From Halovivax gelatinilyticus (lineage in GTDB: Archaea; Halobacteriota; Halobacteria; Halobacteriales; Natrialbaceae): a stretch of 32,000 nt of DNA. Below are positions 2,728 through 28,802 of this stretch, one piece after another (positions within the stretch are counted from its first letter, which is position 1; each line of letters begins with the position of its first letter). The stretch is from the NCBI RefSeq assembly GCF_024300625.1, contig NZ_CP101322.1:43992-75991 (forward strand), in the 5' to 3' direction. Both the position numbers and the translations under genes were made by a program. Below the pieces are notes generated by a model. That model saw nothing but the letters and a program-made list of their open reading frames with translations, was not told the DNA's origin and did no database searches.

Positions 2728-3163
2728 CCAAATCGCCCGATATCTCGGATCGGCGTTTCTCAACGCGACCCGGATAGTCATCGTCTCACCCTGGGTGAGC
2801 GATATCAAGGTCAAGGTCCCAGAGACGGACCAAATTGACGACCGAGAGTTACTGCTCTCTCAAGCGGTGAACCAGTTCGACGTTAACGTGACATTCGTCG
2901 TTGACCCTGCTAATAATGCCCACAACCGGTTACGGGCACAAGCCCTCCTCCCTAAAGTTAGTAGCCATGCGACGATCGAGACTGTAGATAACCTTCATGC
3001 GAAAGCTATTGTCACGGACCAAATTCTCTATCAGGGTTCAGCCAACGTGACCTACCACGGTCTGAATGTCAACGTCGAATTATGTGATCTTCGAGAAAAC
3101 GAATACGAGGACGCAAACGACTTCTTGCGGGAACGAATCGGGCTCGAACTTGGCGAGTCCTAA
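2696..3163 (+). CDS. Phospholipase-D-family (single HKD) nuclease, Nuc/DrmC-like
   Basis: NLHAKAIVTDQILYQGSANVTYHG is a complete H-x-K-x4-D-x6-G-S-x-N motif at 2996-3046. There is one HKD copy in about 155 aa, as in dimeric PLD nucleases. The ORF overlaps the upstream helicase ORF by 32 nt, so the true start may be slightly downstream. Confidence 0.85.
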   Translation: MMVQTFSIRSDQIARYLGSAFLNATRIVIVSPWVSDIKVKVPETDQIDDRELLLSQAVNQFDVNVTFVVDPANNAHNRLRAQALLPKVSSHATIETVDNLHAKAIVTDQILYQGSANVTYHGLNVNVELCDLRENEYEDANDFLRERIGLELGES

Positions 3164-5204: not shown

Positions 5205-5323
5205 GGACTCTACACATAATCATCATTCAATATAAATAATACCAGTGTATCAGGGATCTGTTGTGTTCTGGATTTGTTGTTAGAATCAGTCCTTTCTGGG
5301 ATTATTAGGTTCCGAGGCTCACG

Positions 5324-12444: not shown

Positions 12445-12535
12445 CGTGACAGTCGTGGAGGACCAGCAACATCAAAGTACCGTCGGCCTATTCCTTTATC
12501 CGGTTATTCTGGAACGGAATCGGACTATTACGACC

Positions 12536-14542
12536 TTATTGGGTGTCCACCGGACTGGTCGCACGGTCGTCCAGGTAGTCCAATAATTCTTGAATGTTGT
12601 CATTCCTGAAAAACTCGGTGAGCTGTAATGCCTGGGGAGATTCAGGAAATACCACTCCTTGACCGTATTCGTCAAACGCGTCCTCGATAACTCGCCTGTA
12701 CGTTTTGCTCGTCACGTAACCAATAATCTCGTCGAATTGATCGCCGTAGCGTTCGAGGTACTGTGAGACGCGACCGGTGACCAATTCGATCTGATCGGTG
12801 TCCTCTTTCGCGAGAACGTAATCATACTCCAATATTGGCTGTTCTCGCTCGAACTCTTCGGGCACGGGTCCGTACATTCCCGAAATTGTAACTTTATGTA
12901 CGGCTTCGCTCAGAGACCCAAGTTTATCGAACAAGATTGAATGAGTCCGCGAACGCGAGTAGGGCTTTTGCTGGCTGCACGGGACAAATAGAAGGATGTC
13001 TTTCTCCCTAGGAGGCTCGTACGATTGGGTGCTAACGTTGAAATCGTTCGGACTATGTTTGAGCGAGATTTGACGCGTGCCAACGGATTCGTCGATTCCG
13101 GCACCCCACTTGGAGAGCTTCGACTGATCGCTCGCCAACGTTGAACCTGGGAGGAGATCGTACGCGCCACGGGACTCGAGTACGTTTTTAAGTCGTTTGT
13201 TTCGAAGTTGAGCCTGCTTGAGCCCGCGCTTGATGTCATCGTGTTCTCTTGCAAACTCAACAACGTACTCTAGCAGTCGTCCCTCTCGAATAGCCCCGCG
13301 GACGCGTCCGAGTTCCTCATTGTACACTTCGAAGTTGTGCCGAGCAAGGAGCGCATAGTAATCACTTTTGATATTTTTCCCGTTCTCTTTTCTACGCTGT
13401 CGTTGCTCGTAGCTCAGATCGGTGTTGAGTTCTTTGACCAACCGGTCATAACTCACACCCCCATCTGAACACAGGAGACAATTCGGGAGATCGCACGGAT
13501 AACTTCTGTCCGGTCCTAGGTACTGATCTAGATCAGATAGTTTATGAGTCGTCCATGTCTCAGGATGGAGATACTTTTTATACTGTGCAGTATGCATGTG
13601 GGTTGAACAGTCAAACGTATCGACACCAAGAAGGGAGAGCAGGCCAACCTGTTTTCCACCCACACCGAAAACGTGGAGGCCGATTTCGTCCGAACGGGCT
13701 TCCGGAATAGCGTCTTTTGCTCCCTGAACGATATCCACCAATACATCGATACTATCTCGAAGCGGAACGAGCGATCCTACGGCAAATCCTTGGAACGAAC
13801 TGTCGATATCGAGTTTGTCGACACGATCGAGAAAGTTCCCAACGTACCAATTGACCGTTTCGTAATCGTGTCCGTGAAGCGCGACATATACGCTCGGCTC
13901 GTCACCAGCCGCCTGCCGCTCTCGCAAGTGATCCGCTGCGCGGCTGTTGATCGGGAACTCATCGTCGAGGAGATTTGGTTTATCGAGAAGGCGGAGACAT
14001 TCCACTGCGCTATCTATACTCCGATTCATCCGCTCAACTTTCTCTTCTTCTTTAAGATTCGGTGGAATTGGATAATCGAGGGTCGCAACTATGTCGGCCC
14101 CAAAGTCGAGCTGTAGACCGAGTATGCTTTTTGGGTCCGTGTAAAGTCCCCACTCGTTTGGGACACCGCCCTTCTCTGGAGCCTCGCCAAATGTGTTGGA
14201 ATTCATCAGCTTGAAACCGCCAGAATCGATGAAGATGGGGGCGTCGAGACGGTTGAAGCGCTCGTGAAATGTCTTTGGTCTCCAAAAGTCATTCAGATTG
14301 TTCGGAGATACGCCGTAGTCGGTGAAGCTCATCGCCTGAAACATTATCCCTTGAAGATGCTCCTTGTCGATGAGCTTATCCCGCATTCGACGCCAGACAC
14401 CGCCGGACTTCTCAGTAGTACCGCCGATAAGATTGACGACCGGGAACAATGCAGGCGTCTCTACGGGGCCGTGCGTCACATCTAATTCCCCTAGGCGGCC
14501 AAAACCGTCATCACCCACCGTCTTCACCCGAAAGGACGCCAT
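12536..14542 (-). CDS. TGT-family paralog with a C-terminal ArcS-type (PC-x3-KPY) domain; ArcS-like but without a recognisable PUA domain
   Basis: N-terminal TGT core: ETPALFPVVN, IFIDSGGF, ALHGHDY, FAVGSLVP, LHVFGVGG..LGVDTFDCSTH. The zinc site is an unusual C-x4-C-x2-C (CDLPNCLLC, 13469-13495). At 12941-12982 the C-terminal domain reads PCSQQKPYSRSRTH, which is PC-x3-KPY-x2-S-x2-H, followed by VTISGMYGPVPEEFE..PILEYDY (12818-12892). Confidence 0.85.
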   Translation of the reverse strand: MASFRVKTVGDDGFGRLGELDVTHGPVETPALFPVVNLIGGTTEKSGGVWRRMRDKLIDKEHLQGIMFQAMSFTDYGVSPNNLNDFWRPKTFHERFNRLDAPIFIDSGGFKLMNSNTFGEAPEKGGVPNEWGLYTDPKSILGLQLDFGADIVATLDYPIPPNLKEEEKVERMNRSIDSAVECLRLLDKPNLLDDEFPINSRAADHLRERQAAGDEPSVYVALHGHDYETVNWYVGNFLDRVDKLDIDSSFQGFAVGSLVPLRDSIDVLVDIVQGAKDAIPEARSDEIGLHVFGVGGKQVGLLSLLGVDTFDCSTHMHTAQYKKYLHPETWTTHKLSDLDQYLGPDRSYPCDLPNCLLCSDGGVSYDRLVKELNTDLSYEQRQRRKENGKNIKSDYYALLARHNFEVYNEELGRVRGAIREGRLLEYVVEFAREHDDIKRGLKQAQLRNKRLKNVLESRGAYDLLPGSTLASDQSKLSKWGAGIDESVGTRQISLKHSPNDFNVSTQSYEPPREKDILLFVPCSQQKPYSRSRTHSILFDKLGSLSEAVHKVTISGMYGPVPEEFEREQPILEYDYVLAKEDTDQIELVTGRVSQYLERYGDQFDEIIGYVTSKTYRRVIEDAFDEYGQGVVFPESPQALQLTEFFRNDNIQELLDYLDDRATSPVDTQ

Positions 14543-14607
14543 TGAATCAACAAAGGATACAGAATCGTTCCAGATAGACTCTTCGTTATCGCCGCTTCGA
14601 AATACGG

Positions 14608-15093
14608 CTAATCAGGATCCGTCACCGATTGGATTTGATCTGATATCTGGACAGTTGTGTACTCTGCGGCCTCAGTCCAGGAACTCTGCCATTCGTTTCC
14701 TTGTTTCGGCGGCTCCAGCGGAAATTCTACTGGATGATACGAGAGGTCGTCAATAGCCCCCGCTGCGATGGCTCCGACGAACTCCGCATTTTTCCGTTTC
14801 GATGAAACACCACCGCTAGCCAAGTCATAATAATTTGTGAATATTTGTGCGACGAGTACGATATCTACGTCAGTTCTTTCGTTGGTAAGATGACGGAAAA
14901 TCTTCGCAGAATTGTCGGCAGGATCAGCTCGCCTCCACTCCAATTCCAAGAGCACGAGCAGTTTGTCGTTTTCTCCACCGATGTCTACCGGTGTTCCGGC
15001 TAGATCATATTCAGTCTGCCATGACAAGCTAGTATTCGATTCACTGAGTCGGTTGTATATGTACGTCTGTACCTTCGAAGCAAATTCACCCAT
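14608..15093 (-). CDS. Small hypothetical protein, possible PD-(D/E)xK (restriction-endonuclease-like) fold
   Basis: The ORF sits between the GHKL ATPase and the ArcS-like gene. TPVDIGGENDKLLVLLELEWRR has the hydrophobic-D ... hydrophobic-E-x-E/K spacing of REase folds, without a clean K. The ATG at 15093 lies 5 nt after the upstream stop. The track's TTG at 15102 would overlap that stop. Confidence 0.5.
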   Translation of the reverse strand: MGEFASKVQTYIYNRLSESNTSLSWQTEYDLAGTPVDIGGENDKLLVLLELEWRRADPADNSAKIFRHLTNERTDVDIVLVAQIFTNYYDLASGGVSSKRKNAEFVGAIAAGAIDDLSYHPVEFPLEPPKQGNEWQSSWTEAAEYTTVQISDQIQSVTDPD

Positions 15094-15098
15094 GTCGA

Positions 15099-16664
15099 TC
15101 AATCGTCGGCGACGGCTCGCGGTGACATTGGTTCAATGTGGTGGCTGAGTGGCAATATCTCGACATAGGTAGGGTTCTCATCCCCGTAAAGTAGGCCGTT
15201 TTCCTCTAGATCAATCTCGATGTCTTCGCCGAGATACCCTTGCCGTTCGTATTCTCGTAACACCACCGGGTCCCCGTGATCCCAGCAAATTATGAGATCT
15301 ACTTCCTCGAACGTCAGCTCCTCATTGAAGTGATTTGTCAATGAACAGTGAACAGCCGCATTGCGAAGTTTCCCGTTCTGACGTGCAATCGCGTGTACGT
15401 CCGAATCCGGCTCGTAATCTTCGACAGAAATCTGTCCTGGTAAGGTATTCTCGTTCTCCCGTGCGAGCGTGAGTAGGACCTCAGTTCGATTCGATGGCTC
15501 ACCGGAGTCCCCCGATTCCACGCGCTCTCGTCGGAGCTTGAGTGAGGCACGGCGGTTCCGAGCTCGGCGTTTAATCTCCGCTTCTCGTCGGATTTCAAGA
15601 TATTCTTTGAACCACGGATCTTGTGCCACTTTCGATAGATGAAATTCGGTCGCTTCTTTGAGCGCCTGGAACACAGGGCTCGATTTATTTCGAATCGTTT
15701 CACGATTGGCTGATAATTCGATATCTTGGCAGTTCACAACAAAGAAGAAGTGAAGGAATTCATTGTCATGAGAGATTGCCTCGTTCAGCCGTTCAACCTT
15801 GATGTGATCCTTTGCAAGCCAGACACCGAACTGTGCGGAATGCTTTCCATAGGTAGGAAGCTCGTTTCGAGCGGCTTTCCCACCGACCATTCCAGTGATG
15901 TGGAGCGTCGTCGTGCCACCATCGTAATCGGCTTCGACCTCTGTCGGTCCGTAGTGTTTACACATTCGCTCGGCAGGGAAATCTGACGAGTAATCGGGCT
16001 CAAGTTGTTCGTTCGGGAACTCAAGTCGGTTCTTCGTCTCAACTTCCGGATATGAATCGTCTATTTCGTCACCAAGACGAACAGTGATGTCCATTTCGTG
16101 CTGATCGTCCTCGAACATGTGTGCCGTCGAGCCGGCGATAGTTTTCCACTTTAGATAATGTTCGATCTTATTATAAGTGAGTGATTCCGGATCGAATCCC
16201 TGACCGGATCGGAAATTGTGGATTCTGATCCTCGTTCCCTTGTGAAGATTGCTTACAGGTGTTTCAGTGACTTCGTACTCAGGAAGTACCCGGTTGTTAA
16301 GTTTTTTCCAAGGGTCACTCATCACCGCCCGGAGGTTGGTGCCATCATGGACGGTATTGACGACGATCTCATCGCTTTTGTAGAATATTTTCGTCCCATG
16401 ACCTTTGTACCCTATCGAATCCGTCTTGCGCGAATTCCCCAAATCGAAAAAGGATTCGAGGTCACGGAGGTCCATGCCGTCTCCATCGTCATCGATGATG
16501 ATGTCAGAGCCCATCTCTCGACTTTTAATCTCGATTTCAATATTTGAAGCATTTGCATCGTACGAGTTCGATAGCGATTCCCGGATTACCTCAAGCGGGT
16601 CCTCGAAGTCGCTCGCAATTTCGAGGAACTCGTTCACTTCGTTGACCTTTGGAGCTTTTTTCAT
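15099..16664 (-). CDS. GHKL (Bergerat-fold) ATPase, HATPase_c_3 / prokaryotic MORC-like
   Basis: IRESLSNSYDANAS is the N-box E-x3-N-x2-D-A, DDDGDGMD is D-x-G-x-G (both within 16476-16580), and GYKGHGTK is the G2 box. There is a basic coiled segment (REAEIKRRARNRRASLKLRRER). An ATGA overlap with the upstream TGT gene at 16661-16664 was checked. Confidence 0.85.
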   Translation of the reverse strand: MKKAPKVNEVNEFLEIASDFEDPLEVIRESLSNSYDANASNIEIEIKSREMGSDIIIDDDGDGMDLRDLESFFDLGNSRKTDSIGYKGHGTKIFYKSDEIVVNTVHDGTNLRAVMSDPWKKLNNRVLPEYEVTETPVSNLHKGTRIRIHNFRSGQGFDPESLTYNKIEHYLKWKTIAGSTAHMFEDDQHEMDITVRLGDEIDDSYPEVETKNRLEFPNEQLEPDYSSDFPAERMCKHYGPTEVEADYDGGTTTLHITGMVGGKAARNELPTYGKHSAQFGVWLAKDHIKVERLNEAISHDNEFLHFFFVVNCQDIELSANRETIRNKSSPVFQALKEATEFHLSKVAQDPWFKEYLEIRREAEIKRRARNRRASLKLRRERVESGDSGEPSNRTEVLLTLARENENTLPGQISVEDYEPDSDVHAIARQNGKLRNAAVHCSLTNHFNEELTFEEVDLIICWDHGDPVVLREYERQGYLGEDIEIDLEENGLLYGDENPTYVEILPLSHHIEPMSPRAVADD

Positions 16665-17908
16665 TGGAAGTACCCCCCGAGCGAGTGGTTAACTACTCGA
16701 TGAGCAGACTCTCGAGTTGGTTTATCTTGTGCAACAGTGCCTTCGATATACTCGACCAACGATGACGAATCACCTGATTTGACCCGTTGGCGAACCTCTT
16801 CGATCTCTCGTTTTTGAATGATTAAGTTGTGCATAGCTACCGGCCCCAACATGTCTTTTTTATATGGAGCATTTCCACGCATCCACCTTCGCATGTGCTG
16901 AGACGAGCATACTGGGCAATCACACTCGTCAAAATTCGCTTCATTAACGTTCACCGTCTCCATAAGTGATAGGAAATATCCACCGTTGATCGCATTTTGC
17001 AAGTACGTCGATGAATCGAAGGTGTCTACGCCAAGCGCAACAAGTAATGGGACGGCTCTGCTGGAAATTCCGAGAACGTGCAACGGTAATTTGTCGAAAC
17101 CCCAATCGTGTAGCACTTCGTGGCAATCGATTACAGCGTCGATTAGGGCCGACCGATTGTCCTTCATTGGTACGAGACTACCAAGGGCAATTCCGTCGAA
17201 AGACGACCGAAGCTTTTCCGCGCTCACATAGTCAGTTATCTCGGTGAGGAAAGCGTCCATCATCGAGTAGTTATATCCGTGTAAAGTGAGGTACCGGGCC
17301 CCGGTATACTCGTCAGACAGGTCAAGAAATATCTCGATGTTTTTTCCCGTTTTTCGGGCTTTTTCGAGCCGTTCCTCGTGAGTATCGGACGGCGTTATCG
17401 GGTGGTCGAGATTGACGATGATATCACCACCCATTCGTTTCTGTATCTCGAATACTTTCGCTTGATCGATATCCTCTTGGAAGTCGCTTCCATCCAGGCT
17501 TTCATTATTTAAGAATTTGAATCCACCAGAGTCTAGGAAGATAACTCCGTTAAAAGGTGAAAACACCTCTCGTTCTTTTATCGGTTCATAGACATAGTCG
17601 GCATATCGTTCTTTTGAGACGTTGTAGTCGGTGAGGGACGAAACGGAGGTCATGACCGCATCAAAGAATTTCGCGTATGCATCATCCCCCCCAATTCGGT
17701 CAGCTCCGATCATAAACTCCTTGACCGTTCGATGGATACCCCCGCCGTAAACACTATTCTCGGTACCGCCACCGTAAAAATTTACGACCGGGAATAGGTT
17801 TGGTGTTTCAATTACCGAGTCACCAATTGTCAGCTTACCAGCACGGGCGTCTCCCACCGTCTCCGAAACCTCAAAATTTGCCGAATAACTTGTCTTTGAA
17901 TATGACAT
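16661..17908 (-). CDS. Stand-alone TGT-family protein, DpdA-like (catalytic core only, no PUA or C-terminal tRNA-binding domains)
   Basis: ETPNLFPVVNFYGG, IFLDSGGF, LTLHGYNY, IALGSLVP, LHVLGISS..LGVDTFDSSTY. The zinc site is canonical: CDCPVC at 16907-16924 (checked) plus VAMHNL. The protein is 415 aa and ends shortly after the Zn subdomain. Confidence 0.85.
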   Translation of the reverse strand: MSYSKTSYSANFEVSETVGDARAGKLTIGDSVIETPNLFPVVNFYGGGTENSVYGGGIHRTVKEFMIGADRIGGDDAYAKFFDAVMTSVSSLTDYNVSKERYADYVYEPIKEREVFSPFNGVIFLDSGGFKFLNNESLDGSDFQEDIDQAKVFEIQKRMGGDIIVNLDHPITPSDTHEERLEKARKTGKNIEIFLDLSDEYTGARYLTLHGYNYSMMDAFLTEITDYVSAEKLRSSFDGIALGSLVPMKDNRSALIDAVIDCHEVLHDWGFDKLPLHVLGISSRAVPLLVALGVDTFDSSTYLQNAINGGYFLSLMETVNVNEANFDECDCPVCSSQHMRRWMRGNAPYKKDMLGPVAMHNLIIQKREIEEVRQRVKSGDSSSLVEYIEGTVAQDKPTRESAHRVVNHSLGGYFQ

Positions 17909-18369
17909 TAGTTAACCTTCCTAATACCCGACTCTTCGCCTTGAAGGAACTGTTTGAGCGAGCGCCCCTTCAAACCGATACCATCTCCCTGTACCAGGTA
18001 TGTCTCAACATCTAGTCCTTCATCAAATCCGTCAATGGCCCTTCGATACTCTTTACCAGCGTTAATGACAACTCGTTTATATTGTTTCTCGGTGACCCGA
18101 TTTTTCAGCTCATTCCTTACTTTTGGTCCGAGCTCTTTTGCCCTGTGAGAGTCCATTCTTCGGTCATACGGAGAGATTGGTTCTTCAGGATCGATGATAC
18201 CGTGTTTCGCAGATAGAATACATAAGTCACAATCAGAATATCCGCCTCCCTCTCCCATCGATTTTTTGATAATTTTGAAGAAGTATCCAGAATACAGTTC
18301 GAGGGCAGAGACGGGTTTATCCGGCTCGATTTTGGACTTCGAGCAAGATTGAACGAGCAGCGTCGACAT
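17908..18369 (-). CDS. Small C-x3-K protein, paralogous to the C-terminal ArcS-type domain of the 668-aa protein (DUF5591/DUF6884-like, tentative)
   Basis: LLVQSCSKSK (18331-18345) aligns with LLFVPCSQQK of the ArcS-like protein. CILSAKHGIIDPEEPISPYD (18163-18219) aligns with VTISGMYGPVPEEFE..PILEYD. A TAATG stop/start overlap joins it to the DpdA-like gene at 17908. Confidence 0.6.
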   Translation of the reverse strand: MSTLLVQSCSKSKIEPDKPVSALELYSGYFFKIIKKSMGEGGGYSDCDLCILSAKHGIIDPEEPISPYDRRMDSHRAKELGPKVRNELKNRVTEKQYKRVVINAGKEYRRAIDGFDEGLDVETYLVQGDGIGLKGRSLKQFLQGEESGIRKVN

Positions 18370-18397
18370 GGGTTGGACACTGATCGTTGTTCCAGTG

Positions 18398-18409
18398 CTA
18401 TAATAGTTT
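18398..18409 (-). promoter_or_regulatory. Candidate archaeal TATA box (minus strand AAACTATTATAG) for the C-x3-K/TGT/GHKL operon
   Basis: AT-rich element centred about 33 nt upstream of the ATG at 18369, inside the only sizeable intergenic gap (18370-18583) of the long minus-strand array. Confidence 0.3.
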
Positions 18410-18583
18410 CTGGTGGTCGCGCTGTCTGTTCATTGACTATGTAATCTTACCCAGAAATAGTCCGAAGTCATATAACAACGACCGCACACATATCATAGAC
18501 CACCTACATTCCATGATGTTACTGGACTAAGTGGCATATTTAGGATTTATTATTTTCCTTTCTCCCTGGTAAAGTTTTGGGGT

Positions 18584-19282
18584 TTAATTCATAAAGGACC
18601 TAGGACGTTCACTGTACTCGATTGGATCCCTCGATCCGACGCTTCTGAACGAATCTAGCCGCAACGCACAGGAGTCACAAATCCCACACGCCGGCGCTTC
18701 GTCCCGGTAACACGACCACGTGAGTTCGTACGGAACCTCAAGTTCGAGACCCCGCCCAGCGATTTCCGTCTTCGACCACTCGACGAACGGTGCGACCAGA
18801 TCGATCTCTGTTTCGGGTTTCGTACCGACGTCAACGACCCGCTGGAAGGCGTTAAAGAACTCCGGGCGGCAATCAGGATAGCCTGCGAAATCCTCCGAGT
18901 GCGCACCGATGAACACCGCGGAGCAGTCGTTCGCTTCGGCGTACGAAACAGCCATCGCTAACAGATTCGCGTTCCGGAACGGAACGTACGATGTCGGGAT
19001 TTCGTCGCTCTCAAGGTCCGCATCGGACACCTCAATTTCGTCGTCGGTAAGGCTAGAGGCACCGATTTTCGACAGATGGCTCGTCTCAATGTGCAGAAAG
19101 TCCGCCGCGTTTACTTCCTCTGCCAGCGCTTTCGCGCACTCGTATTCCTTGTTCTCGGTTCGCTGCCCGTACGAGGTATGTAAAAAGTACGGTTGGTAGT
19201 CGCGGTCGATCGCTTCGTAGACCGCGGTCGCACTGTCCATCCCACCTGAAACCAGTATTGCTGCGCGTACGTCGTTACTCAT
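18584..19282 (-). CDS. queC: 7-cyano-7-deazaguanine (preQ0) synthase QueC
   Basis: N-terminal PP-loop ILVSGGMDSATA. C-terminal zinc cysteines WSCYRDEAPACGICDSCALR. Length is 232 aa. Confidence 0.95.
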   Translation of the reverse strand: MSNDVRAAILVSGGMDSATAVYEAIDRDYQPYFLHTSYGQRTENKEYECAKALAEEVNAADFLHIETSHLSKIGASSLTDDEIEVSDADLESDEIPTSYVPFRNANLLAMAVSYAEANDCSAVFIGAHSEDFAGYPDCRPEFFNAFQRVVDVGTKPETEIDLVAPFVEWSKTEIAGRGLELEVPYELTWSCYRDEAPACGICDSCALRLDSFRSVGSRDPIEYSERPRSFMN

Positions 19283-19877
19283 GTGTGTCCACCGCCGAGC
19301 GGAATCGCCACTGTTCGTTTTCGGTCAACTCACCGACTGTAAACTGCGTCGTCGTCTCCGTGGCCGCCTCGACTCCGCGCATTGCTTCGCAGAGGTGCGT
19401 CGCCGCAAGTTCAACCCGTACAGCCTCGGCGTTCACTTCGTTGGCTAACCCTGATGCGATGTCCTGGGTCAGTTTCTCCTGTATCGTCAACCGCCTCGAT
19501 CGCCACCGAACGTAGCGGGCGAGCTTCGAGAGACCGACGACCTCGTCCTTCGGACGATACGCTATGTGAGCAACACCGTGGTACGGTAGCATGTGATGCT
19601 CGCAAAGACTGTACACCGAAATTCCCGTTTTGATCACGAGTTCACCGCTTTCAGCTGCGAAGGTTCGCATCTCGGGTTTCGCCGACTCTCGCTGCCCTTC
19701 TGTGAGTGTCTCGAGAGACGCCGGCATTCGGCGCTGCCAGGTATCCGTCAGTTCTTCGCGGTTAGGATCCTCTCCCAGCGCCTCCAGTAGCATCCGCGTG
19801 GCACGCTGGGCTTTCTGCCAGTCAATGTCGGACGTTTCACTGCTCTCCATGCTCGGTTGCTGGTGCTGTCTTGTCAT
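19275..19877 (-). CDS. folE: GTP cyclohydrolase I, type IA (FolE)
   Basis: SLCEHHMLPYHGVAHIAY and PKDEVVGLSKLARYV are FolE active-site signatures. I place the start at ATG 19877 (ATGA overlap with the queE stop, checked). The track's GTG at 19898 is less likely. Confidence 0.9.
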   Translation of the reverse strand: MTRQHQQPSMESSETSDIDWQKAQRATRMLLEALGEDPNREELTDTWQRRMPASLETLTEGQRESAKPEMRTFAAESGELVIKTGISVYSLCEHHMLPYHGVAHIAYRPKDEVVGLSKLARYVRWRSRRLTIQEKLTQDIASGLANEVNAEAVRVELAATHLCEAMRGVEAATETTTQFTVGELTENEQWRFRSAVDTHE

Positions 19878-20650
19878 GTTCCTGGTTCGTCGTTCCACAG
19901 ATCGACGTGCAGTCGCGGCGTGTAGCGATAGCCACGCTCAAGTGCCAATTCGGCGATCTCGTTTCGTGTGTCGTCCAGTTCGTCTCGGGTCGCCCCTTCT
20001 GGCATCAACAAAACGTCGTCATTGGTCACTGCCGTATCGGTCAACTCTCGGATCTGGCTAACGAGATAATCGACTTCGGACAAATCGTGCGCTTCAGTAA
20101 CGACGAACTTCAATTGGCTATCGTACTGGTCGATCAGCCTTCCGAGCGCTTCGAGATCGATACGCTGTTCTTCATGTCTTATCTCCCACTCCCCGTCTCC
20201 CTTCGGGGCGCGATCGGGTGTGGGTGTACTGCTCGCGAGTTTCGGACTAATGCTCGCCAAATCGATCGTTGCATCTCGATAGGTGGTGCCATTCGTCTCC
20301 ACGGTAGTGTGATAGCCGTGATCGCCCAGTTCGTCCAGGAGTTGGACAGAGCGTTCGTGGATCATCGGTTCCCCGCCGGTCAAGACGACGTGATCCGCGT
20401 TTTCGTACGTGAGAACTTCGTCGATGATATCGTCGATTGTAAGCCATGCTCCGGTCGGTTCCCAGGAGGTGTGGTAGGAGTCGCAAAACCAACACCTGAG
20501 GTTGCAGCCCGACGTTCTGACGAACACAGAGGGGACACCGGCGAGTTTGCCCTCTCCCTGTAACGAGCAGAAGAGTTCGTTTATCGGAAGACCCTCACCT
20601 TCACCAGCGTGTTCGGTGGCGAGTTCCGAAACGTCGCTTGTGACCGGCAT
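19874..20650 (-). CDS. queE: 7-carboxy-7-deazaguanine synthase QueE (radical SAM)
   Basis: ELFCSLQGEGKLAGVPSVFVRTSGCNLRCWFCDS is the QueE-type radical-SAM cluster motif, and VVLTGGEP is also present. The likely start is ATG at 20650 (TAATG overlap with the queD stop). The track's TTG at 20665 is less likely. Confidence 0.92.
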   Translation of the reverse strand: MPVTSDVSELATEHAGEGEGLPINELFCSLQGEGKLAGVPSVFVRTSGCNLRCWFCDSYHTSWEPTGAWLTIDDIIDEVLTYENADHVVLTGGEPMIHERSVQLLDELGDHGYHTTVETNGTTYRDATIDLASISPKLASSTPTPDRAPKGDGEWEIRHEEQRIDLEALGRLIDQYDSQLKFVVTEAHDLSEVDYLVSQIRELTDTAVTNDDVLLMPEGATRDELDDTRNEIAELALERGYRYTPRLHVDLWNDEPGT

Positions 20651-21111
20651 TAGTACGTCGCACAAAGTTCGTCAGTCTCTCGAACCGTCACGGATACGTT
20701 TGCGACGTTGTCCGGAAACACCTCCAGCATCCGTTCCTCGAGTAGAACGGACATCACTTCAGCTGTCGGTGGGTGCTGGAGTACGATGAGTGAATCAGCA
20801 TCGCCCGATCGTTCGAAGGCATCGATCAGCGGATCCCCTTCCTCAACGAGAAACATGTGATCCCAGTCGCCGATGACATCAGTTACATCTCCCTTGTCCA
20901 CGATCCAGCCTTCCTCCGCGAGATGACCGGTGATTTCCACCGTAATCTCGTAGTTGTGCCCGTGGGGCCGCGAGCACTTTCCGTCGTGGTGGAGAATCCG
21001 GTGACCCGTGCTGATCCGAATGGGTTTGTTTTCCCCGATTACGAGTGTCCGTTCTTCAGTGTTCGAAAGGAGGGCGCTACCAAAATCACCCCCAGATATT
21101 CTCTGTGGCAT
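20650..21111 (-). CDS. queD: 6-carboxy-5,6,7,8-tetrahydropterin synthase QueD
   Basis: HRILHHDGKCSRPHGHNYEITVEITG is the C-x3-HGH zinc/catalytic motif. The ATG at 21111 is preferred over the track's GTG at 21135. Confidence 0.9.
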   Translation of the reverse strand: MPQRISGGDFGSALLSNTEERTLVIGENKPIRISTGHRILHHDGKCSRPHGHNYEITVEITGHLAEEGWIVDKGDVTDVIGDWDHMFLVEEGDPLIDAFERSGDADSLIVLQHPPTAEVMSVLLEERMLEVFPDNVANVSVTVRETDELCATY

Positions 21112-21286
21112 ACCCAAAGAATATCCCGAGTGCACATAAGCTTATTTGTTGATTTGTTCGTACTGCGGAAACGTCTACAACGAATCATCTTCATCTATCA
21201 GTTCATGACTATTATTTGCCGAGAAAACCGAAAGTTACAGATTGAGTTGGGATATGCCCCAATGAATTGTAGAAAGGTGAGGTCTG

Positions 21287-21682
21287 TTAGAGCACTCGGT
21301 CCGAATAATATGACCCAGTGATTCTAATCTCACTCTCATCGACTACATCTACGATTCTTTTCATTAACTGTGCCAGAGGTTCGGTCTGATTTGTGGACGA
21401 TACTTTCATCGCATGTTCGTCAAAGTTGACGACACCATAATCGTCGAGCATCGGAAGATGGGTATGTTTGAGACCAATGTCCGATGATCGTTGTACAGTC
21501 CGGCCGACTGACTCGGAATCCACATCCGCTTCTTCGGCAGCAACCTGTCTACCCAGGTCTGACACCCGAACGGTCACCGTCTCGCTACCTTCCTCGATTT
21601 GAAGATCTAGGAGTAACTCGAGCACGATTCGACGTCGCTCCGACTGGAGAATACGCAGGATGTCCTTCAGTTCCTTACTCAT
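21287..21682 (-). CDS. Haloarchaeal winged-helix transcription regulator, DUF7344-like
   Basis: ILQSERRRIVLELL ... SDLGRQVAAEE ... LKHTHLPMLDDYGVVNFDE matches the RRR...L-x-H-x-HLP-x-L-x-D-x-G-V pattern of this family, recalled from memory. It is co-directional with queD and lies immediately upstream of it. Confidence 0.65.
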   Translation of the reverse strand: MSKELKDILRILQSERRRIVLELLLDLQIEEGSETVTVRVSDLGRQVAAEEADVDSESVGRTVQRSSDIGLKHTHLPMLDDYGVVNFDEHAMKVSSTNQTEPLAQLMKRIVDVVDESEIRITGSYYSDRVL

Positions 21683-22052: not shown

Positions 22053-25000
22053 ATGGTTGATACCGATGATCGGCCGGCAGTCACACTAAATCCGAGCGGT
22101 CTCGGCCAATACATCAGTTATTCTGGGTGTCCGCGATTTTTCAGACTGAAGTTTTTCGACCACGGCCTCGTGAATAAGCGAAACTGGTACGATCCGAACG
22201 CAGGTAGTGACCTTTTCGCAGAACTTGGGTTAGCCTACGAAGAAGAACAATTGAAAACACTCAGTGAGGATGCATCCCGAGTCATCGGGGACACTGACAG
22301 CGATGGTGATGTGATCCCATATGATGAGACGTGGGAAGACAATACGGGATCACACGGCGACATAGAAACGCAGTGGAAAGGTGGAGTCCGTGAACAGTTG
22401 ATCAATCTGATCGAGACCCTCGCAGATAGCGACCATGACGAGTTGGATGGACCCGTCGTGTTGTTCCAGACACCCATGTTTGGACGGATCGGAGTCTGGG
22501 ACATTGCTGGTATTGCCGATCTCATCACACTGGAACCGCTTCCGGAGAGTCGCGGCGTCCGAACTAGAGTTCTGGAGGTCAAGACGTCCTGGAAGGACAA
22601 GACATCTCAGCAGATTCAATCGACGATCTATAGTTTACTATTAAGCACGGTGGTTTCCGAGTGTGGCGTCGATCATGAACCCGTCGCCACAGTAGTTAAT
22701 CGTGAGGCAGACCTCCGCGAACATCCCCTGCCGGAACTCCCGCCGATCGATCTTCCCTCGCGGACCGCGGAGGTGAAACGCCTGTTGAAACAGGATGGTG
22801 AACTACACCAGTTAGCGCGAAAGTCGTTTGACGAGGTCGGGTATCGCCTCGAACGAAAATGCGACGGGTGCCCGTATAACGGGATTTGTTTCACGAAAGC
22901 AATTGAATCACGCGATCCAGCACTGTTGAACCTCACACAGGGGAATCAGGAACGGCTTCGAGTGCAGGGCATAGACTCGCTCGCGGGGTTGACCGACCTG
23001 TTTGAGCGAGAAGAGGGGACGAAACCGTATGATTACGACGAACTCCCAGTACGTGATGAGACAATCGTTCGTGCCTTAGAGAGTGAGGGAACCCTTTCGA
23101 ATCGCCTCGACGAAATCGTTCAACGGGCTCAGGTACTCCGTGGAGAACTCGATCCGTCGTACGACTCGTTCGGCGGCGTAGAGTACCTACGTGGCAGTGG
23201 GAACGGCAATCTCCCTGACGACGATCCGCATCCACGATTGCCCGGAGGGGCGTGTGAGCGCAACGAACTGATCCGGGTGTACCTGTACGTCCAGCACGAT
23301 CCCGTACGTGACCGGCTGGCGCTCTTGGCTGCTCGCATCAATTGTGACAAGACCGATGCGACGACCGTCGTTGAATTTAGCGAGCAACTCCCAGCGGCGA
23401 AAGACGATAGCCTCGACGCGGAAGCGAAGCTACTGGAAGCGTTTTTCGAACGGCTAATCAAAGCAATCCAGGGCATAAAAGCCGAGTTTGGCTCGAGTCC
23501 AGACCAGGGCTATGTCCATCTGTACACGTATTCCGCCCACGAACGGGACGCACTCATGGAGGGTGTTCAACGACAACCGTCCGTCTTTGGAAGCGCCGCA
23601 GTACGTGATCTTCTGGGACTACGAGAGGGACTCGACCAACCGATGGTGTCGGTCGTGCATAACGATATTACGAGTCGCTTGGCGTTACAATACCCGGGGA
23701 CAGGGCTCATCCAGACAGTCGAGCAAATGCAGGCGTTCGCCGACGAGTCCTATCCTCGACGCTGGTTTTCTGCTACCGATTGGAAAGCGACGATTGCTGG
23801 CGACGAAGTTGACCTTCGGGATGTATTCAGGACTGGGTTGTTCGAGGGGAAGCGAGCGTACGTCGAGGAGGGCAACTCGATCAGATTGCTCCTTGGTGAT
23901 CCAGGCGATCCGGATCGGGAGCCAGATGGCTTCTACCCACTGTACAATCGATTTGGAAATCAGATTCCCCTGGAGTACCTGTGGGCTGCTCGCGGTAAGT
24001 TAGACGATGATGTGGAACTCGGGACGGGCAGTTCGTCGCTCTCAACATATCGGTACTACGACGGGGAGGGCTCCAAACCGATCGGAGCCCCAGAAGTGAA
24101 AGCACTCGCACAGCGACTGACGGAAGCTCTCGAGCACGTCGAACGGGCGATCGCGTACAAGAACTGGCAAATCGATAAGCAACCACTCGATTTGAGCCGA
24201 CTGCCAGCCTTCTCGCTTGAAAATATTGAACTGAACCGTGCCTGCCAAGAGTATCTTGATCTGGAACACACGACGAACTATCGTGACTGTCTCGACCATT
24301 ACCTCAAACCGCCTCGAAAGCGCATGCAGACCGGCGATTCGACGATTTTCCGCGTCACGAACGTCGAACCTGCTGGCCAGTGGGATATCCGCGTCGAGGG
24401 CGATCTTCTCTATGACGAGTTGTTCCGAAATCCGGATCAGGTGATCGATAGTTGCCGGATCAGCGGCTCGGACGACGGCGGCTCCGGAAGCTGGCGAGTA
24501 ATGTCGAAACTCGAGCGCAACGGCAGGGAATTCAGACAAGTCAATGCGACATACCCGCGGTATCTGGCAAATTCGATCAAGGCATCCGTCGAGTCGTTCG
24601 ATCGAACCGGCAAAACGATCACGGTGAGTGCATCGACCCACGGTGGGTTCGGCCGCAGCCGGTACCTTGAGTGGCACCGGAGTGCAACGATGGAACCCGA
24701 GGAAGCCGACGGAGAGGATTACACGACGCTGGTCTCTGAAGGTGACCTCTTTGTGCTTGATCCGTACGCGGATTCTTACCCCGCGCTCAGAGCCTACGAA
24801 GCGCTCGAGCGGACGGAGTCGAACGCGTTGTACCACCAGTTGAACCGCGCGTTCCAGGACGGCGAAACTGAGCAGTTCGACCGGCAGTTTTGTTCGCCGA
24901 CCGCTGTTGCGGACTTCATCGAAACGTTCGAGGATGCGACGGGTGCGCGTCCCCGCGGGAACCAGGCGGAGTTCGTTAAGGAAGTTGACCACAGCGTCTC

Positions 25001-26483
25001 CGTTCTGCAAGGGCCGCCAGGAACCGGCAAGACCAGTTTTACGCTTGCACCGGCGGTGTTAGCTCGACTCGCAGCGAGCGAAGACGAGGGGGATCGGTTA
25101 CTCACGGTTGTGACTGCGCCGTCGCACACTGCTGTTGATGAAGCGATGGAGGACATCGTCACGAACTGGGCCGACCTCACTGAGAGTTCAGCAACCACTG
25201 CGGCAACCGAGTTTGTTCGGGTTCGTGCCGGTTCTTCCACCGATGTCCGTGAGGCCGTCGACGAGCACGTACGGTTTGTCGATTATTACGATACAACTGA
25301 TGTGGTCGAGATGACCGACGCGCTTCGTCCACACGTGACGCCGGACGGTCGGGCGACGAATCATCTCGTCGTGTTCACCACGCCGACATCGCTTCGGGGT
25401 GTGATTAACAAATGCTCGGGTGAGTTATTCGCTCTCGACGACGCTGAAGCGGTGATGGATGCCGGGATTTCGTTCGTCGATTTGCTGGCGATCGACGAGG
25501 CGAGTATGCTCGATCTGCCGGCGACGCTCCTCTCGAGTGCGTTCCTCAAGGACGATGCACAAACGCTCCTCATCGGTGACCACCGGCAAATGGAGCCAGT
25601 TCAACAACACGACTGGGAGGGGGAGGATCGCCGAACCATCGAAGAGAATGTGCCGTTCATGTCGGTGTTGAACTTCGTCCGATTCCTCAGAGGCGACCTT
25701 GAGGAAACCGATTTTGCATTCGCCCAATCACCCGATATCGGTGACGCGATTCCGATCACACGCCTCGACCGAACCTATCGGCTACACACTCGAGTCGCTG
25801 ACTTGCTCACTGACCTGGTGTACACTGACGACGGGATAAAACTCAAATCAAGCCAGACAGCGACGATTGATCACGTTCACGCCGGTACGGACGGCGTTGC
25901 AGCCGCGATGAATCCGCAAGCTCCGGCTGCCCTTGTTATTCATGACGAGGACGAGAGCCAAGACGCTAACCGAACCGAGGTCGCTATTGTAGCCGCGTTG
26001 TTGAGCGCGTTGGATGATCCACAACCAACGGAGACTGGAATTGTGACGCCACACAATGCCCAGAAAGGACGACTCAACCAGCAGTTTAATGGAACCGCAA
26101 CGATCGATACCGTCGAGCGGTTTCAGGGTGGGGAACGCGATGTCATGGTTATCTCGGCCACTGCAAGCGACCCGGACTATGTCCGAAGCGAAGCCGAATT
26201 TCTGTTAAATCCAAACCGATTGAACGTCGCCATGTCCCGAATGAAGAAGAAACTCGTCATCGTTGCAAGCGAATCCGTGTTTGAGGTGACACCACCGAAT
26301 GCCGATGAGTTTGACCAAACGTTGATATGGAAGCGCTTGTACGACGCCCTTGGCGTCACCGACAATAGCCCAGCGACGTCAGTTTGGGAGGGAGATCTTG
26401 GTGAGTTTTGTCCAAGTAACGTTGATATTCCCCGCGGAAAATCCGGCACGAATATCGATGTCTACGCCTTGGAATCGGAGTAA
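22053..26483 (+). CDS. Three-module protein: N-terminal Cas4/RecB-type Fe-S nuclease, central RNase-H-like (TM0106-type) region, C-terminal Upf1/Dna2-like SF1B helicase
   Basis: Nuclease (about 22128-22889): SGCPRFFRLKFF, DIAGIADLITLE, RVLEVKTS, QIQSTIYSLLL (QxxxY), CDGCPYNGIC. Middle: VYLYVQHDP and YVHLYTYSAHERDAL. Helicase: VLQGPPGTGKTSF (from 25011), AIDEASML, IGDHRQMEPV, VERFQGGERDVMVIS, LNVAMSRMKKKLVIV. Confidence 0.85.
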   Translation: MVDTDDRPAVTLNPSGLGQYISYSGCPRFFRLKFFDHGLVNKRNWYDPNAGSDLFAELGLAYEEEQLKTLSEDASRVIGDTDSDGDVIPYDETWEDNTGSHGDIETQWKGGVREQLINLIETLADSDHDELDGPVVLFQTPMFGRIGVWDIAGIADLITLEPLPESRGVRTRVLEVKTSWKDKTSQQIQSTIYSLLLSTVVSECGVDHEPVATVVNREADLREHPLPELPPIDLPSRTAEVKRLLKQDGELHQLARKSFDEVGYRLERKCDGCPYNGICFTKAIESRDPALLNLTQGNQERLRVQGIDSLAGLTDLFEREEGTKPYDYDELPVRDETIVRALESEGTLSNRLDEIVQRAQVLRGELDPSYDSFGGVEYLRGSGNGNLPDDDPHPRLPGGACERNELIRVYLYVQHDPVRDRLALLAARINCDKTDATTVVEFSEQLPAAKDDSLDAEAKLLEAFFERLIKAIQGIKAEFGSSPDQGYVHLYTYSAHERDALMEGVQRQPSVFGSAAVRDLLGLREGLDQPMVSVVHNDITSRLALQYPGTGLIQTVEQMQAFADESYPRRWFSATDWKATIAGDEVDLRDVFRTGLFEGKRAYVEEGNSIRLLLGDPGDPDREPDGFYPLYNRFGNQIPLEYLWAARGKLDDDVELGTGSSSLSTYRYYDGEGSKPIGAPEVKALAQRLTEALEHVERAIAYKNWQIDKQPLDLSRLPAFSLENIELNRACQEYLDLEHTTNYRDCLDHYLKPPRKRMQTGDSTIFRVTNVEPAGQWDIRVEGDLLYDELFRNPDQVIDSCRISGSDDGGSGSWRVMSKLERNGREFRQVNATYPRYLANSIKASVESFDRTGKTITVSASTHGGFGRSRYLEWHRSATMEPEEADGEDYTTLVSEGDLFVLDPYADSYPALRAYEALERTESNALYHQLNRAFQDGETEQFDRQFCSPTAVADFIETFEDATGARPRGNQAEFVKEVDHSVSVLQGPPGTGKTSFTLAPAVLARLAASEDEGDRLLTVVTAPSHTAVDEAMEDIVTNWADLTESSATTAATEFVRVRAGSSTDVREAVDEHVRFVDYYDTTDVVEMTDALRPHVTPDGRATNHLVVFTTPTSLRGVINKCSGELFALDDAEAVMDAGISFVDLLAIDEASMLDLPATLLSSAFLKDDAQTLLIGDHRQMEPVQQHDWEGEDRRTIEENVPFMSVLNFVRFLRGDLEETDFAFAQSPDIGDAIPITRLDRTYRLHTRVADLLTDLVYTDDGIKLKSSQTATIDHVHAGTDGVAAAMNPQAPAALVIHDEDESQDANRTEVAIVAALLSALDDPQPTETGIVTPHNAQKGRLNQQFNGTATIDTVERFQGGERDVMVISATASDPDYVRSEAEFLLNPNRLNVAMSRMKKKLVIVASESVFEVTPPNADEFDQTLIWKRLYDALGVTDNSPATSVWEGDLGEFCPSNVDIPRGKSGTNIDVYALESE

Positions 26484-28688: not shown

Positions 28689-28802
28689 TGGTGCGTTGGT
28701 GGCGAGAGAGTCCGCATCCTAATGGGTGTTTCGACCACTAATCCACCGGTTCGAGGGACCTAATTCGCTGATCAACCCGGTTGAACAGCCCATTACACTT
28801 CC

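Follow-up and report, generated by a model that had tools for sequence, protein, structure and literature searches.

What is the purpose, in the haloarchaeon Halovivax gelatinilyticus, of a row of genes in which the enzymes that make preQ0 adjoin two proteins of the tRNA-guanine transglycosylase (TGT) superfamily, a GHKL ATPase and a protein of the DUF6884 family, and upon which nucleic acid do the products of these genes act? The row lies on the chromosome, in a stretch of 32,000 nucleotides (contig NZ_CP101322.1, positions 43,992–75,991; hereafter "the window"), and an initial annotation, made from the letters of this stretch alone, had read it as an archaeal relative of the bacterial Dpd systems of DNA modification. 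The answer proposed here is that the island most likely swaps guanines in the DNA of its own cell for tailored 7-deazaguanines, which would serve as an antiviral self-mark; to the reading as a whole, namely that of a horizontally acquired, Dpd-like island for both 7-deazaguanine DNA modification and restriction, we assign a probability of approximately 0.65. DNA is favored as the substrate because DpdJ-like, DpdK-like and helicase-nuclease genes are found in the neighborhood and because the GHKL gene always adjoins that of a TGT.

The first line of evidence is the conservation of the neighborhood. A scan of 185,579 species genomes, supplemented by plasmid and contig look-ups, yielded 36 haloarchaeal and nanohaloarchaeal loci and in every one of them, on chromosomes and megaplasmids alike, the genes of the DUF6884 protein, of a stand-alone TGT (TGT415, after its length in the window) and of the GHKL ATPase are adjacent, in this same order and on one strand. 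The recurrence of this trio in 36 independent loci means that the arrangement is not due to chance. A second TGT, fused to a DUF5591 domain, has its gene no farther than 10 kb from the core in 31 loci, the trio being without a nearby fusion in the remaining five; 11 loci have three or four que genes, 10 have the small gene orf164 and 23 have a large helicase or nuclease module, again within 10 kb. Since genes for prokaryotic Argonaute (pAgo), DUF4143 ATPases and GmrSD-type proteins are the neighbors at other loci, the setting is that of a defense island. Judged by their low GC content here and their location on megaplasmids elsewhere, the island genes are accessory, mobile and horizontally acquired; the annotation had allowed for either a chromosomal or a plasmid location in an archaeon, and the family indeed occupies both, the chromosome being its site in H. 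gelatinilyticus. In all, 329 homologues of TGT415 were found, almost all of hypersaline origin. A contig of 5139 bp assigned to "Streptomyces sanglieri" encodes two proteins (P0048 and P0154) that are 60–64% identical to haloarchaeal TGT415 and GHKL, and is most likely a contaminant in that assembly.

Bacterial relatives, 25–35% identical and of the same TGT–DUF5591 architecture as the fusion, occur in Cyanobacteria, Poribacteria, Chloroflexota and other groups. The fusion is present in all 19 bacterial loci examined; in four of these it is directly followed by a DpdJ-like helicase of ~1340–1390 amino acids, with or without a phospholipase D (PLD) gene, in five or six by a DUF262/GmrSD_N protein and a HEPN protein, and in the rest by other conserved genes. 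Thus the fusion constitutes a module of wide distribution, able to stand alone with a helicase or nuclease partner, to which the trio of the haloarchaea is in most cases added as a second module. The GmrSD_N domain has a ParB-like fold. In the cyanobacterial loci L040, L042, L045, L047 and L050 the fusion precedes a DUF262/GmrSD_N protein and a HEPN protein of the MAE_28990/RiboL-PSP type, the former of which could be a counterpart of DpdB or a restriction component.

Both TGTs look catalytically competent. The annotation had pointed to the motifs DSGGF and GVDTFD(S/C)S and to a zinc site in both proteins, and all of these are there: the Asp residues of DSGGF, (N/T)LD(H/Y)P and GVDxFD and the Cys3His zinc ligands align in both with those of Pyrococcus horikoshii ArcTGT. 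In TGT415 the residues aligned with the catalytic and zinc-binding positions of this enzyme (1IQ8) are D126, D168, D298 and C329/C331/C334/H360, all invariant across 15 family members, whereas in the fusion D106, D156, D311 and the zinc Cys/His ligands are invariant, or nearly so, in the 52 fusions compared (33 haloarchaeal and 19 bacterial). The zinc motif of the fusion carries a three-residue insertion (LPN), so as to read CxxxxCxxC in place of CxCxxC (residues 349–358, window 13466–13495), the canonical form being kept in about half of the haloarchaeal homologues and in all the bacterial ones. The residues of the preQ0-type pocket, G-S-L-V-P, resemble those of ArcTGT. The catalytic motif PC-x3-KPY-x2-S-x2-H, defined for the C1/DUF5591 domain of ArcS (PMC5699537), reads PCSQQKPYSRSRTH at residues 521–534 of the fusion, and none of its P, C, K, P, Y and S varies among the same 52 proteins, except for the first Pro, which is Ala in two of the 19 bacterial ones. 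The N-terminal stretch FPVVNxxGG, previously taken as unusual, is present and has distinctive flanks, but its PVVN portion is shared with the canonical P. horikoshii enzyme. As to the starts of these proteins, RefSeq gives 398 amino acids for the TGT, as against 415 in the longest open reading frame (ORF), and 660 as against 668 for the fusion; the longer TGT is favored because conservation in the family sets in from residue 12 onward and because of the TAATG overlap with the preceding gene.

The DUF6884 protein (Pfam DUF6884, E-value 1.2e-16) offers a second link with preQ0 chemistry. According to Pfam, this family, characterized by CxxxK and LSAxxG motifs, is distantly related to DNA-binding YaaA (PF03883), and in a pull-down its member YfjM was recovered on DNA lesions (PMC11701544); DpdC, which converts preQ0-DNA into ADG-DNA, is likewise a DUF328/PF03883 protein (PMC5699537, PMC12839542, PMC10164549). 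The window protein matches PADLOC PDC-M57A at 5.5e-13; its matches to PF03883 (2e-5, 24.7 bits, cut-off 29.6) and to the PADLOC DpdC model (1.5e-3) are weak, and hhalign against E. coli YaaA gives a probability of 29% (E 6e-4); by these scores the protein is a distant relative of DpdC and YaaA and not a member of their family. When a profile of 38 DUF6884 sequences from the related loci was aligned by hhalign with one of 60 DUF5591 domains, the probability was 96.6% (E 5e-10, 107 columns), as compared with at most 1.9% for reversed, column-shuffled and TGT-core controls. The alignment pairs SCSKSK with PCSQQKPY and ILSAKHG with TISGMYG, and the invariant residues of DUF6884 are C9, K13, S53, A54, G57, Y68 and D69. 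The profile comparison thus shows the DUF6884 protein to be homologous, as a separate polypeptide, to the catalytic core of ArcS, the Cys-x3-Lys being common to both, so that DUF6884 and TGT415 together amount to the fusion in split form. In the literature searched, this relationship was not found to be stated. The ArcS-type tailoring step postulated earlier is supported, as the ArcS motif is kept in the DUF5591 domain of the fusion and DUF6884 is homologous to the ArcS core.

In bacteria, DpdA depends on the hydrolysis of ATP by DpdB, a ParB-like protein (PMC10164549), and what could take the place of DpdB in the archaeon is the GHKL protein. Its match to HATPase_c_3 (1.2e-13) is accompanied by the N-box E29/N33 (ExxxN), by DxGxG at 59–63 and by GxxGxG at 85–90, all invariant in 26 homologues. 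The AlphaFold model (pLDDT 76, pTM 0.66) consists of ATPase and transducer domains, then a long helix and, at the C-terminus, a small domain rich in beta structure, the latter part of the protein having C460, W461, G464, D465, R474 and Y477 as invariant residues. Foldseek relates the model to HtpG/Hsp90, the 43K fragment of GyrB/ParE, MORC2/3/4, the N-terminal domain of the MutL family and SMCHD1, with 336–460 columns aligned to GyrB 43K, the MutL-family N-terminal domain, MORC and the N and M domains of Hsp90. A restriction endonuclease was considered and rejected, in that the NCBIfam BbrUII/HgiDII match (5.4e-11) covers the ATPase domain only, no nuclease Pfam is matched and the C-terminal residues form no known signature. 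That a GHKL ATPase stands where DpdB would be expected had been suggested before and is supported, since the motifs are intact, the gene adjoins that of TGT415 at every locus and none of the window ORFs scanned contains a ParB-like domain. Because of this constant adjacency, of the overlap of its start with the TGT stop and of the lack of an encoded ParB-like protein, the GHKL ATPase may be regarded as a functional substitute for DpdB.

The precursor, finally, would be supplied locally. The four genes queD, queE, folE and queC had been said to cover every step from GTP to preQ0 and this is upheld, each product matching its own family: QueD matches PTPS (3.7e-19) and, as its best NCBIfam model, QueD TIGR03367 (68 bits, under the cut-off of 89); QueE passes the Pfam cut-off for Radical_SAM (1.9e-16) and its five top NCBIfam matches are all QueE families (103 bits at most, under the equivalog cut-offs); FolE matches GTP_cyclohydroI (2.4e-52) and exceeds the cut-off of NF006826 (169.6 bits over 162), as does QueC (Pfam 4.3e-69) that of TIGR00364 (181.3 bits over 150.3). 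A role of the operon in folate metabolism was considered and rejected, because two of its enzymes, QueE and QueC, belong to the deazaguanine pathway only. In Halobacterium salinarum UC4243 five to six copies of folE, queD, queE and queC were interpreted as folate genes (PMC10058572), and are more likely to belong to deazaguanine islands or proviruses.

From these elements the following sequence of events may be envisaged. FolE, QueD, QueE and QueC make preQ0 from GTP by the established pathway. TGT415 would then exchange guanine in double-stranded DNA for preQ0 in a manner dependent on the GHKL ATPase, by analogy with DpdA and DpdB, after which DUF6884 would attack the nitrile of the DNA-bound preQ0 to give either an amide (dADG, as with DpdC) or an amidine (dG+ or an amine or amino-acid adduct, as with ArcS). 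ArcS chemistry yields dG+ or, with lysine, a preQ0-Lys intermediate, RaSEA being needed for that reaction in Thermococcus (PMC11298593); here a DpdC-type reaction would lead to dADG and an ArcS-type one to dG+ or preQ0-Lys. The fusion would act as a second, self-contained writer having both activities in one chain; in bacteria it is found beside DpdJ-like helicases and without the trio, and in the archaeon it would probably mark other sites or make a second derivative. Unmarked DNA would be attacked by the DpdJ-like helicase with the DpdK-like PLD protein, by the SF1 helicase-nuclease and perhaps by the orf164 product, this restriction role being proposed because of the homology and co-occurrence of the helicase and nuclease genes.

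A bolder version of this scheme is conceivable, in which two parallel pairs of a TGT with a Cys-x3-Lys enzyme, one pair split and the other fused, produce one or two 7-deazaguanine bases, at least one of the products being new to cellular DNA (a candidate such as dG+ or an amino-acid amidine adduct, for example preQ0-Lys), a clamp ATPase of the GHKL/MORC type powers base exchange in the duplex and the whole constitutes the first cellular archaeal 7-deazaguanine restriction-modification system; so specific a combination is put forward tentatively, and the odds are rather against its holding in full.

Several observations weigh against the modification and restriction reading. The assignment of DNA as substrate comes from gene context and from the missing tRNA-binding domains, and the best-scoring characterized relatives of both TGTs are ArcTGT and ArcS, which act on tRNA, and not bacterial DpdA; it is by analogy that GHKL and DUF6884 are given their roles; the scheme offers no reason why two writers should be needed; no RaSEA-like gene is present in the window, where the sole radical-SAM gene matches QueE families, and the ArcS of T. 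kodakarensis shows no activity in the absence of RaSEA, the radical-SAM protein with which it works (PMC11298593); the deep nodes of the neighbor-joining (NJ) tree described below are poorly supported; and at 13 of the 36 loci a helicase module is missing from the 10 kb around the core, so that restriction may not be obligatory.

How the proposed modification and restriction island compares with what is known can be stated as follows. Like the bacterial Dpd system of Salmonella Montevideo, in which DpdA, DpdB and DpdC modify and DpdD–K restrict (PMC10164549, PMC5699537), it associates a TGT-superfamily enzyme with an ATPase and with a putative tailoring enzyme of the nitrile, YaaA/DUF328-related in fold, sometimes has the preQ0 genes in the cluster, is mobile and sporadically distributed, and lies close to large helicases and a PLD nuclease whose best family matches are DpdJ and DpdK. 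Unlike in Dpd, the TGTs come from the ArcTGT side and not from that of bacterial DpdA, the ATPase is GHKL/MORC-like rather than ParB-like, the putative tailoring enzyme is a DUF6884 protein, nearer to the ArcS core than to DpdC, a second TGT is fused to DUF5591 and the hosts are archaea; no match to the DpdD–I models was found among the proteins scanned. The island would work like bacterial Dpd, yet its TGTs fall outside the DpdA family, a ParB-like DpdB is missing and its DUF6884 protein is a distant relative of DpdC.

RaSEA is an archaeal protein, which E. coli is not expected to encode. Phage DpdA2 together with the DUF5591-only ArcS2 of Vibrio phage nt-1 gives rise to dG+ in DNA, in small amounts, in E. 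coli (PMC10516641). With this pair the island would share a DNA transglycosylase and a PUA-less core of DUF5591 type, in that case converting dPreQ0 to dG+; the phage pair consists of two proteins, and its counterparts here are both split (DUF6884 and TGT415) and fused. Unlike the phage enzymes, to which no close sequence relationship is detectable, those of the island are cellular, have a dedicated ATPase and are associated with helicase and nuclease genes. The BREX-related capture (BRC) system, with its TGT and GNAT proteins, is similar in that TGT-based self-marking of DNA without DpdB or DpdC is proposed to occur in archaea and a non-ParB NTPase to drive the insertion (PMC12839542), but its components (HerA/FtsK, PglZ, BrxC-like, STAND NTPase, GNAT) are all different and the TGTs of the locus L005, found in that context, are only 25–28% identical to TGT415. 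This locus, on plasmid pBNX82-4 of Haloferax alexandrinus (9018–15562), encodes a 964-residue TGT fusion, a 344-residue TGT, a hypothetical protein, a BREX-type ATPase and QueD; TGTs of its type are found on ten plasmids, are 24–28% identical to TGT415 and probably represent the BRC system (PMC12839542), and the "host DpdA" EMA11768 of Haloarcula vallismortis (PMC6884629) may be of the same type. The MutL/MORC-type GHKL ATPases of restriction-modification, as PMC12137116 presents them after Iyer et al. 2008, likewise consist of a Bergerat ATPase with a transducer and occur in defense contexts; unlike the ATPases presented there, that of the island is coupled to a base-exchange enzyme, not fused or linked to a nuclease, and has no detectable nuclease domain. 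The combination of DUF6884, TGT, GHKL and TGT–DUF5591 was not found in the literature searched, in keeping with the earlier remark that such an architecture was not known to have been described.

Is restriction truly part of the system? Three modules alternate beside the core: module A, which has a DruE/DrmA-like DEAD helicase with an MZB domain and three unknown proteins, occurs at 14 loci and is not in the window; module B, a DpdJ-like helicase of ~1336 amino acids followed by a DpdK-like PLD nuclease, at 12; and module C, a fusion of an SF1 helicase with a PD-(D/E)xK nuclease (~1480 amino acids), at three. The window holds B and C. A plasmid of Haladaptatus sp. YSMS36 (L004, 13509–27436) has modules A, B and C together, and encodes three TGTs, TGT415 and two TGT–DUF5591 paralogs 65% and 42% identical to the fusion of the window. 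The DpdJ-like gene of the window has no stop in frame 1 from base 1 onward and retains helicase motif VI; its product is 30% identical to residues 465–1336 of the full-length Haladaptatus helicase of 1336 residues, which in turn matches PADLOC DpdJ at 6e-50 and NCBIfam DpdJ with 161 bits (cut-off 800), and its own sole NCBIfam match is DpdJ (1.6e-8, 32.7 bits, same cut-off). DpdK is the top NCBIfam match of the PLD protein (4.5e-15, 55.6 bits, under the cut-off of 100), which is 37% identical to the PLD protein of Haladaptatus (PADLOC DpdK 3.8e-11), and the PLD gene always follows that of the DpdJ-like helicase. The SF1 helicase-nuclease matches AAA_11, AAA_12 and PDDEXK_1, as well as PADLOC MkoA (1e-41) and DpdJ (1e-18), is 32% identical over its full length to its ortholog of 1493 residues, encoded beside the core on the Haladaptatus plasmid, and is also present in L011 and L021.

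The orf164 product matches nothing in Pfam, NCBIfam or PADLOC. Its AlphaFold2 model (pLDDT 91.8) has the alpha-beta-beta-beta-alpha-beta core of PD-(D/E)xK enzymes and its invariant residues are E28, P35, D37, E50, E52 and K64, arranged as P35-x-D37 and E50-x-E52, with K64 on the next helix in place of the canonical Lys. The Foldseek matches (SfsA, an R2 restriction endonuclease domain, Can2, Bax1, OkrAI, BglII) are weak, the best having an E-value of 2.5e-3. Of the nuclease-like nature formerly ascribed to this ORF, therefore, fold and top matches agree with PD-(D/E)xK, weakly, and no match reaches E ≤ 0.001.

That three different modules take turns beside the core, and that 13 loci lack one within 10 kb, would also be understandable if the island did no more than deazaguanylate the DNA that carries it, to protect it from the restriction enzymes of host or competitor in the manner of phage DpdA systems, the adjoining helicases and nucleases being independent defense systems. 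Such a role would suit a family that resides on megaplasmids, given that defense islands pack unrelated systems together and that 7-deazaguanines shield phage DNA from restriction (PMC6884629). On the other hand, genes like those for DpdJ and DpdK are specific partners of bacterial dpdA and the bacterial TGT–DUF5591 gene may be directly followed by that of a DpdJ-like helicase; moreover, no relative of TGT415 was found in the 2.9 million viral contigs of IMG/VR, the tblastn search of the INPHARED phage records returned only TGTs ~21–25% identical, plus one 31% match confined to the DUF5591 region, and the window has no integrase, no att-like or other meaningful repeats and no virion genes. Modification without restriction is accordingly considered rather unlikely.

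Could the substrate, instead, be RNA? The proteins of the window were compared with the housekeeping enzymes by equivalog scores, domain content and an NJ tree. TGT415 and the fusion match Pfam TGT at 1.8e-29 (103 bits) and 5.5e-27 (95 bits; DUF5591 at 6e-21), respectively, and both belong to the superfamily by TIGR00449 (86.5 and 89.8 bits over a cut-off of 47.6). With the TgtA equivalog TIGR00432, whose cut-off is 350 bits, they reach 117.6 and 104.6 bits, respectively; the fusion obtains 112.9 bits, against 440, with the ArcS equivalog NF040592, and TGT415 obtains 27.7 bits, against 200, with the DpdA model NF041059 (PADLOC DpdA, 26 bits). The Pfam scan detected neither PUA nor TGT_C2 in the two proteins, as already noticed for the PUA domain and other tRNA-binding tails, whereas the canonical ArcTGT representatives, taken from a search of 1.84 billion cluster representatives, score 236–287 bits on Pfam TGT and some (P0407, P0463) show both TGT_C2 and PUA. 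In the TGT415 search of these representatives the nearest proteins outside the family are short, TGT-only proteins and PUA-less TGT–DUF5591 fusions of 600–700 amino acids, the canonical enzymes appearing only at E 1e-23 and weaker. The NJ tree puts both TGTs in a PUA-less clade, apart from the C2/PUA-bearing enzymes, with bootstrap values of 100% for the TGT415 family and 80% for the clade that contains the 668-residue protein. The family searches and phylogeny for which the annotation had called therefore favor its reading and set both paralogs outside canonical ArcTGT and ArcS, and by these three measures they are not housekeeping tRNA enzymes, their scores being far under the cut-offs, their C2 and PUA domains missing and their grouping separate.

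With the tRNA archaeosine pathway of ArcTGT, ArcS and RaSEA (PMC5699537, PMC11298593) the island has in common the catalytic Asp residues, the zinc site, the preQ0-type pocket, the intact ArcS motif and the preQ0 precursor; it differs by the missing C1, C2 and PUA domains, by scores far under the equivalog cut-offs and by its genes being accessory, plasmid-borne elsewhere and located in a defense island. Paralogs adding archaeosine-type marks at extra positions of tRNA or rRNA under some conditions, with DUF6884 and a preQ0 supply of their own, would account for the fact that the closest characterized sequence relatives are ArcTGT and ArcS and for the preservation of the ArcS motif; multisite ArcTGTs exist (PMC4770233) and ArcS takes minimal substrates down to the nucleoside (PMC11298593). 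An RNA target is nonetheless improbable in view of the absent C2 and PUA domains, of scores that amount to no more than about a third of the equivalog cut-offs, of the sporadic, plasmid-borne distribution and low GC, of the strict linkage to a GyrB/MutL/MORC-type ATPase and to a protein of a DNA-binding family (PMC11701544) and of the recurrence of DpdJ/DpdK-homologous helicase and nuclease genes as neighbors.

The chemistry of the TGTs is a base excision that proceeds through a covalent intermediate. Very improbable is, finally, that the trio recognizes 7-deazaguanine-containing viral DNA or damaged bases and performs ATP-dependent excision or trapping, as in a type-IV-like or glycosylase-type defense, with only the fusion writing the host mark: such modifications are common in haloarchaeal tailed viruses, HVTV-1 and all Druskaviridae carrying or encoding them (PMC6884629, PMC8651126), base excision is within the reach of a TGT, the DUF6884 protein YfjM is recovered on DNA lesions (PMC11701544), GHKL domains occur in restriction enzymes of the BbrUII/HgiDII kind and the fusion alone is sufficient in bacterial loci, but the trio has no nearby fusion at five of the 36 loci, the motif in the active site of DUF6884 corresponds to that of the ArcS core, which modifies nitriles, the GHKL protein is without a recognizable nuclease domain or C-terminal nuclease signature and the preQ0-type pocket is as in ArcTGT.

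Coming back to the proposed modification and restriction island and to its layout (Table 1), the ORFs of nine co-directional minus-strand genes were found between 12536 and 21135, where the annotation had placed them. Its description of the row as tightly coupled is correct for the six junctions that it cited, i.e., TAATG between QueD and QueE (at 20650), ATGA between QueE and FolE (19874–19877), an 8-nucleotide overlap between FolE and QueC (19275–19282), TAATG between DUF6884 and TGT415 (17908), ATGA between TGT415 and GHKL (16661–16664), where the GHKL start overlaps the TGT stop, and TGA, five nucleotides and ATG between GHKL and orf164 (15093–15101); the coupling is broken by a gap of 214 nucleotides with 41% GC between QueC and DUF6884 and by one of 65 nucleotides between orf164 and the fusion gene, so that two or three transcription units, and not one, are present. 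At least two can be recognized, queD-queE-folE-queC and DUF6884-TGT-GHKL-orf164, the latter with or without the fusion. The 214-nucleotide gap likely holds an internal promoter for the DUF6884-TGT-GHKL unit, and the Rfam scan revealed no family within it and no riboswitch upstream of the que genes. The GC content of the core is 49%, compared with ~60–61% in the AddAB-like pair and the right flank. The extent originally given to the system, 12536–21135, corresponds to the modification module only; the likely system spans 1–3163 and 22053–26483 as well.

Table 1. Features of the island and of its surroundings in the H. gelatinilyticus window (aa, amino acids; nt, nucleotides)
Feature	Coordinates	Strand	Basis
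DpdJ-like DEAD/DEAH helicase, C-terminal ~908 aa (two thirds of the gene), running off the left edge	1..2727	+	
DpdK-like phospholipase-D-family nuclease	2696..3163	+	NCBIfam DpdK
AddA-like (UvrD helicase + PD-(D/E)xK) and AddB-like (1144 aa, four-Cys C-terminus) pair	5324-12444	-	
PUA-less TGT–DUF5591 fusion, 668 aa	12536..14542	-	Pfam TGT + DUF5591; RefSeq WP_254863111
orf164, 161 aa from ATG, small PD-(D/E)xK-like fold, accessory	14608..15093	-	Predicted model
GHKL (Bergerat-fold) ATPase, 521 aa, proposed TGT partner	15099..16664	-	HATPase_c_3
PUA-less stand-alone TGT, 415 aa (TGT415), proposed DpdA analogue	16661..17908	-	Pfam TGT
DUF6884 protein, 153 aa, proposed tailoring enzyme	17908..18369	-	Pfam DUF6884
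Intergenic gap, 214 nt, AT-rich	18370..18583	-	GC 0.41 vs 0.49-0.56 in adjoining genes
QueC (7-cyano-7-deazaguanine synthase)	18584..19282	-	Pfam QueC + TIGR00364
FolE (type I GTP cyclohydrolase), ATG at 19877	19275..19877	-	GTP_cyclohydroI + NF006826
QueE (radical-SAM 7-carboxy-7-deazaguanine synthase), ATG at 20650	19874..20650	-	Radical_SAM
QueD (6-carboxytetrahydropterin synthase)	20650..21135	-	PTPS
SF1 helicase with N-terminal PD-(D/E)xK nuclease, 1476 aa, candidate restriction component	22053..26483	+	

Other genes of the window surround these; no tRNA genes were found among them. AddAB-type enzymes are mainly bacterial. The AddAB-like pair lies directly downstream of the fusion gene (NCBIfam addA gives 227 bits, under the cut-off, for the AddA-like gene) and was rejected as a part of the system, having no homologue in the 36 related loci and a host-like GC of 0.61. 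The lowest GC of the window, 0.43, is that of 3164–5323, where the product of a 323-codon ORF weakly matches DS11, an anti-phage protein with a CBS domain, as well as PADLOC PDC-M34B, and that of a 156-codon ORF matches nothing. Between queD and the divergent SF1 helicase gene, a DUF7344 protein of winged-helix-like type (21287–21682, minus strand) may be a local regulator and is not conserved at the other loci. Farther to the right, an AAA_14/DUF4143 ATPase (27120–28688, minus strand), a homologue of which adjoins a pAgo gene in L002, and a vWA protein (28934–31090, plus strand), whose C-terminus weakly resembles a pPIWI_RE-type restriction endonuclease, probably constitute another defense module (27120–31090).

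What does this locus mean for the haloarchaea? So far, 7-deazaguanine modification of DNA has been described for the Dpd islands of bacteria, for phages and for viruses of archaea, and no cellular system of an archaeon is known to have been characterized; in RefSeq the genes of the island are labelled "tRNA-guanine transglycosylase", "ATP-binding protein", "DUF" or "hypothetical protein", and what emerges is a conserved set of genes, open to testing and represented by no fewer than 36 loci and over 300 homologues of the TGT, that suggests that haloarchaea mark their own DNA with bases derived from preQ0. DUF6884, the ArcS core (DUF5591) and, more distantly, DpdC/YaaA would be brought together as one family of enzymes that act on the nitrile of preQ0 in nucleic acids, and the PUA-less TGT–DUF5591 fusion of Cyanobacteria, Chloroflexota, Poribacteria and archaea may be a one-protein writer of DNA. 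The GHKL protein in the place of DpdB offers a natural experiment on why transglycosylation of DNA needs ATP and would, if the proposal is right, represent a new class of partner. Were the island to act as proposed, cells and viruses would be engaged in a direct arms race over a single base, as this chemistry also serves the viruses of the haloarchaea, HVTV-1 and the Druskaviridae among them, to evade restriction in the very environments that they share with their hosts.

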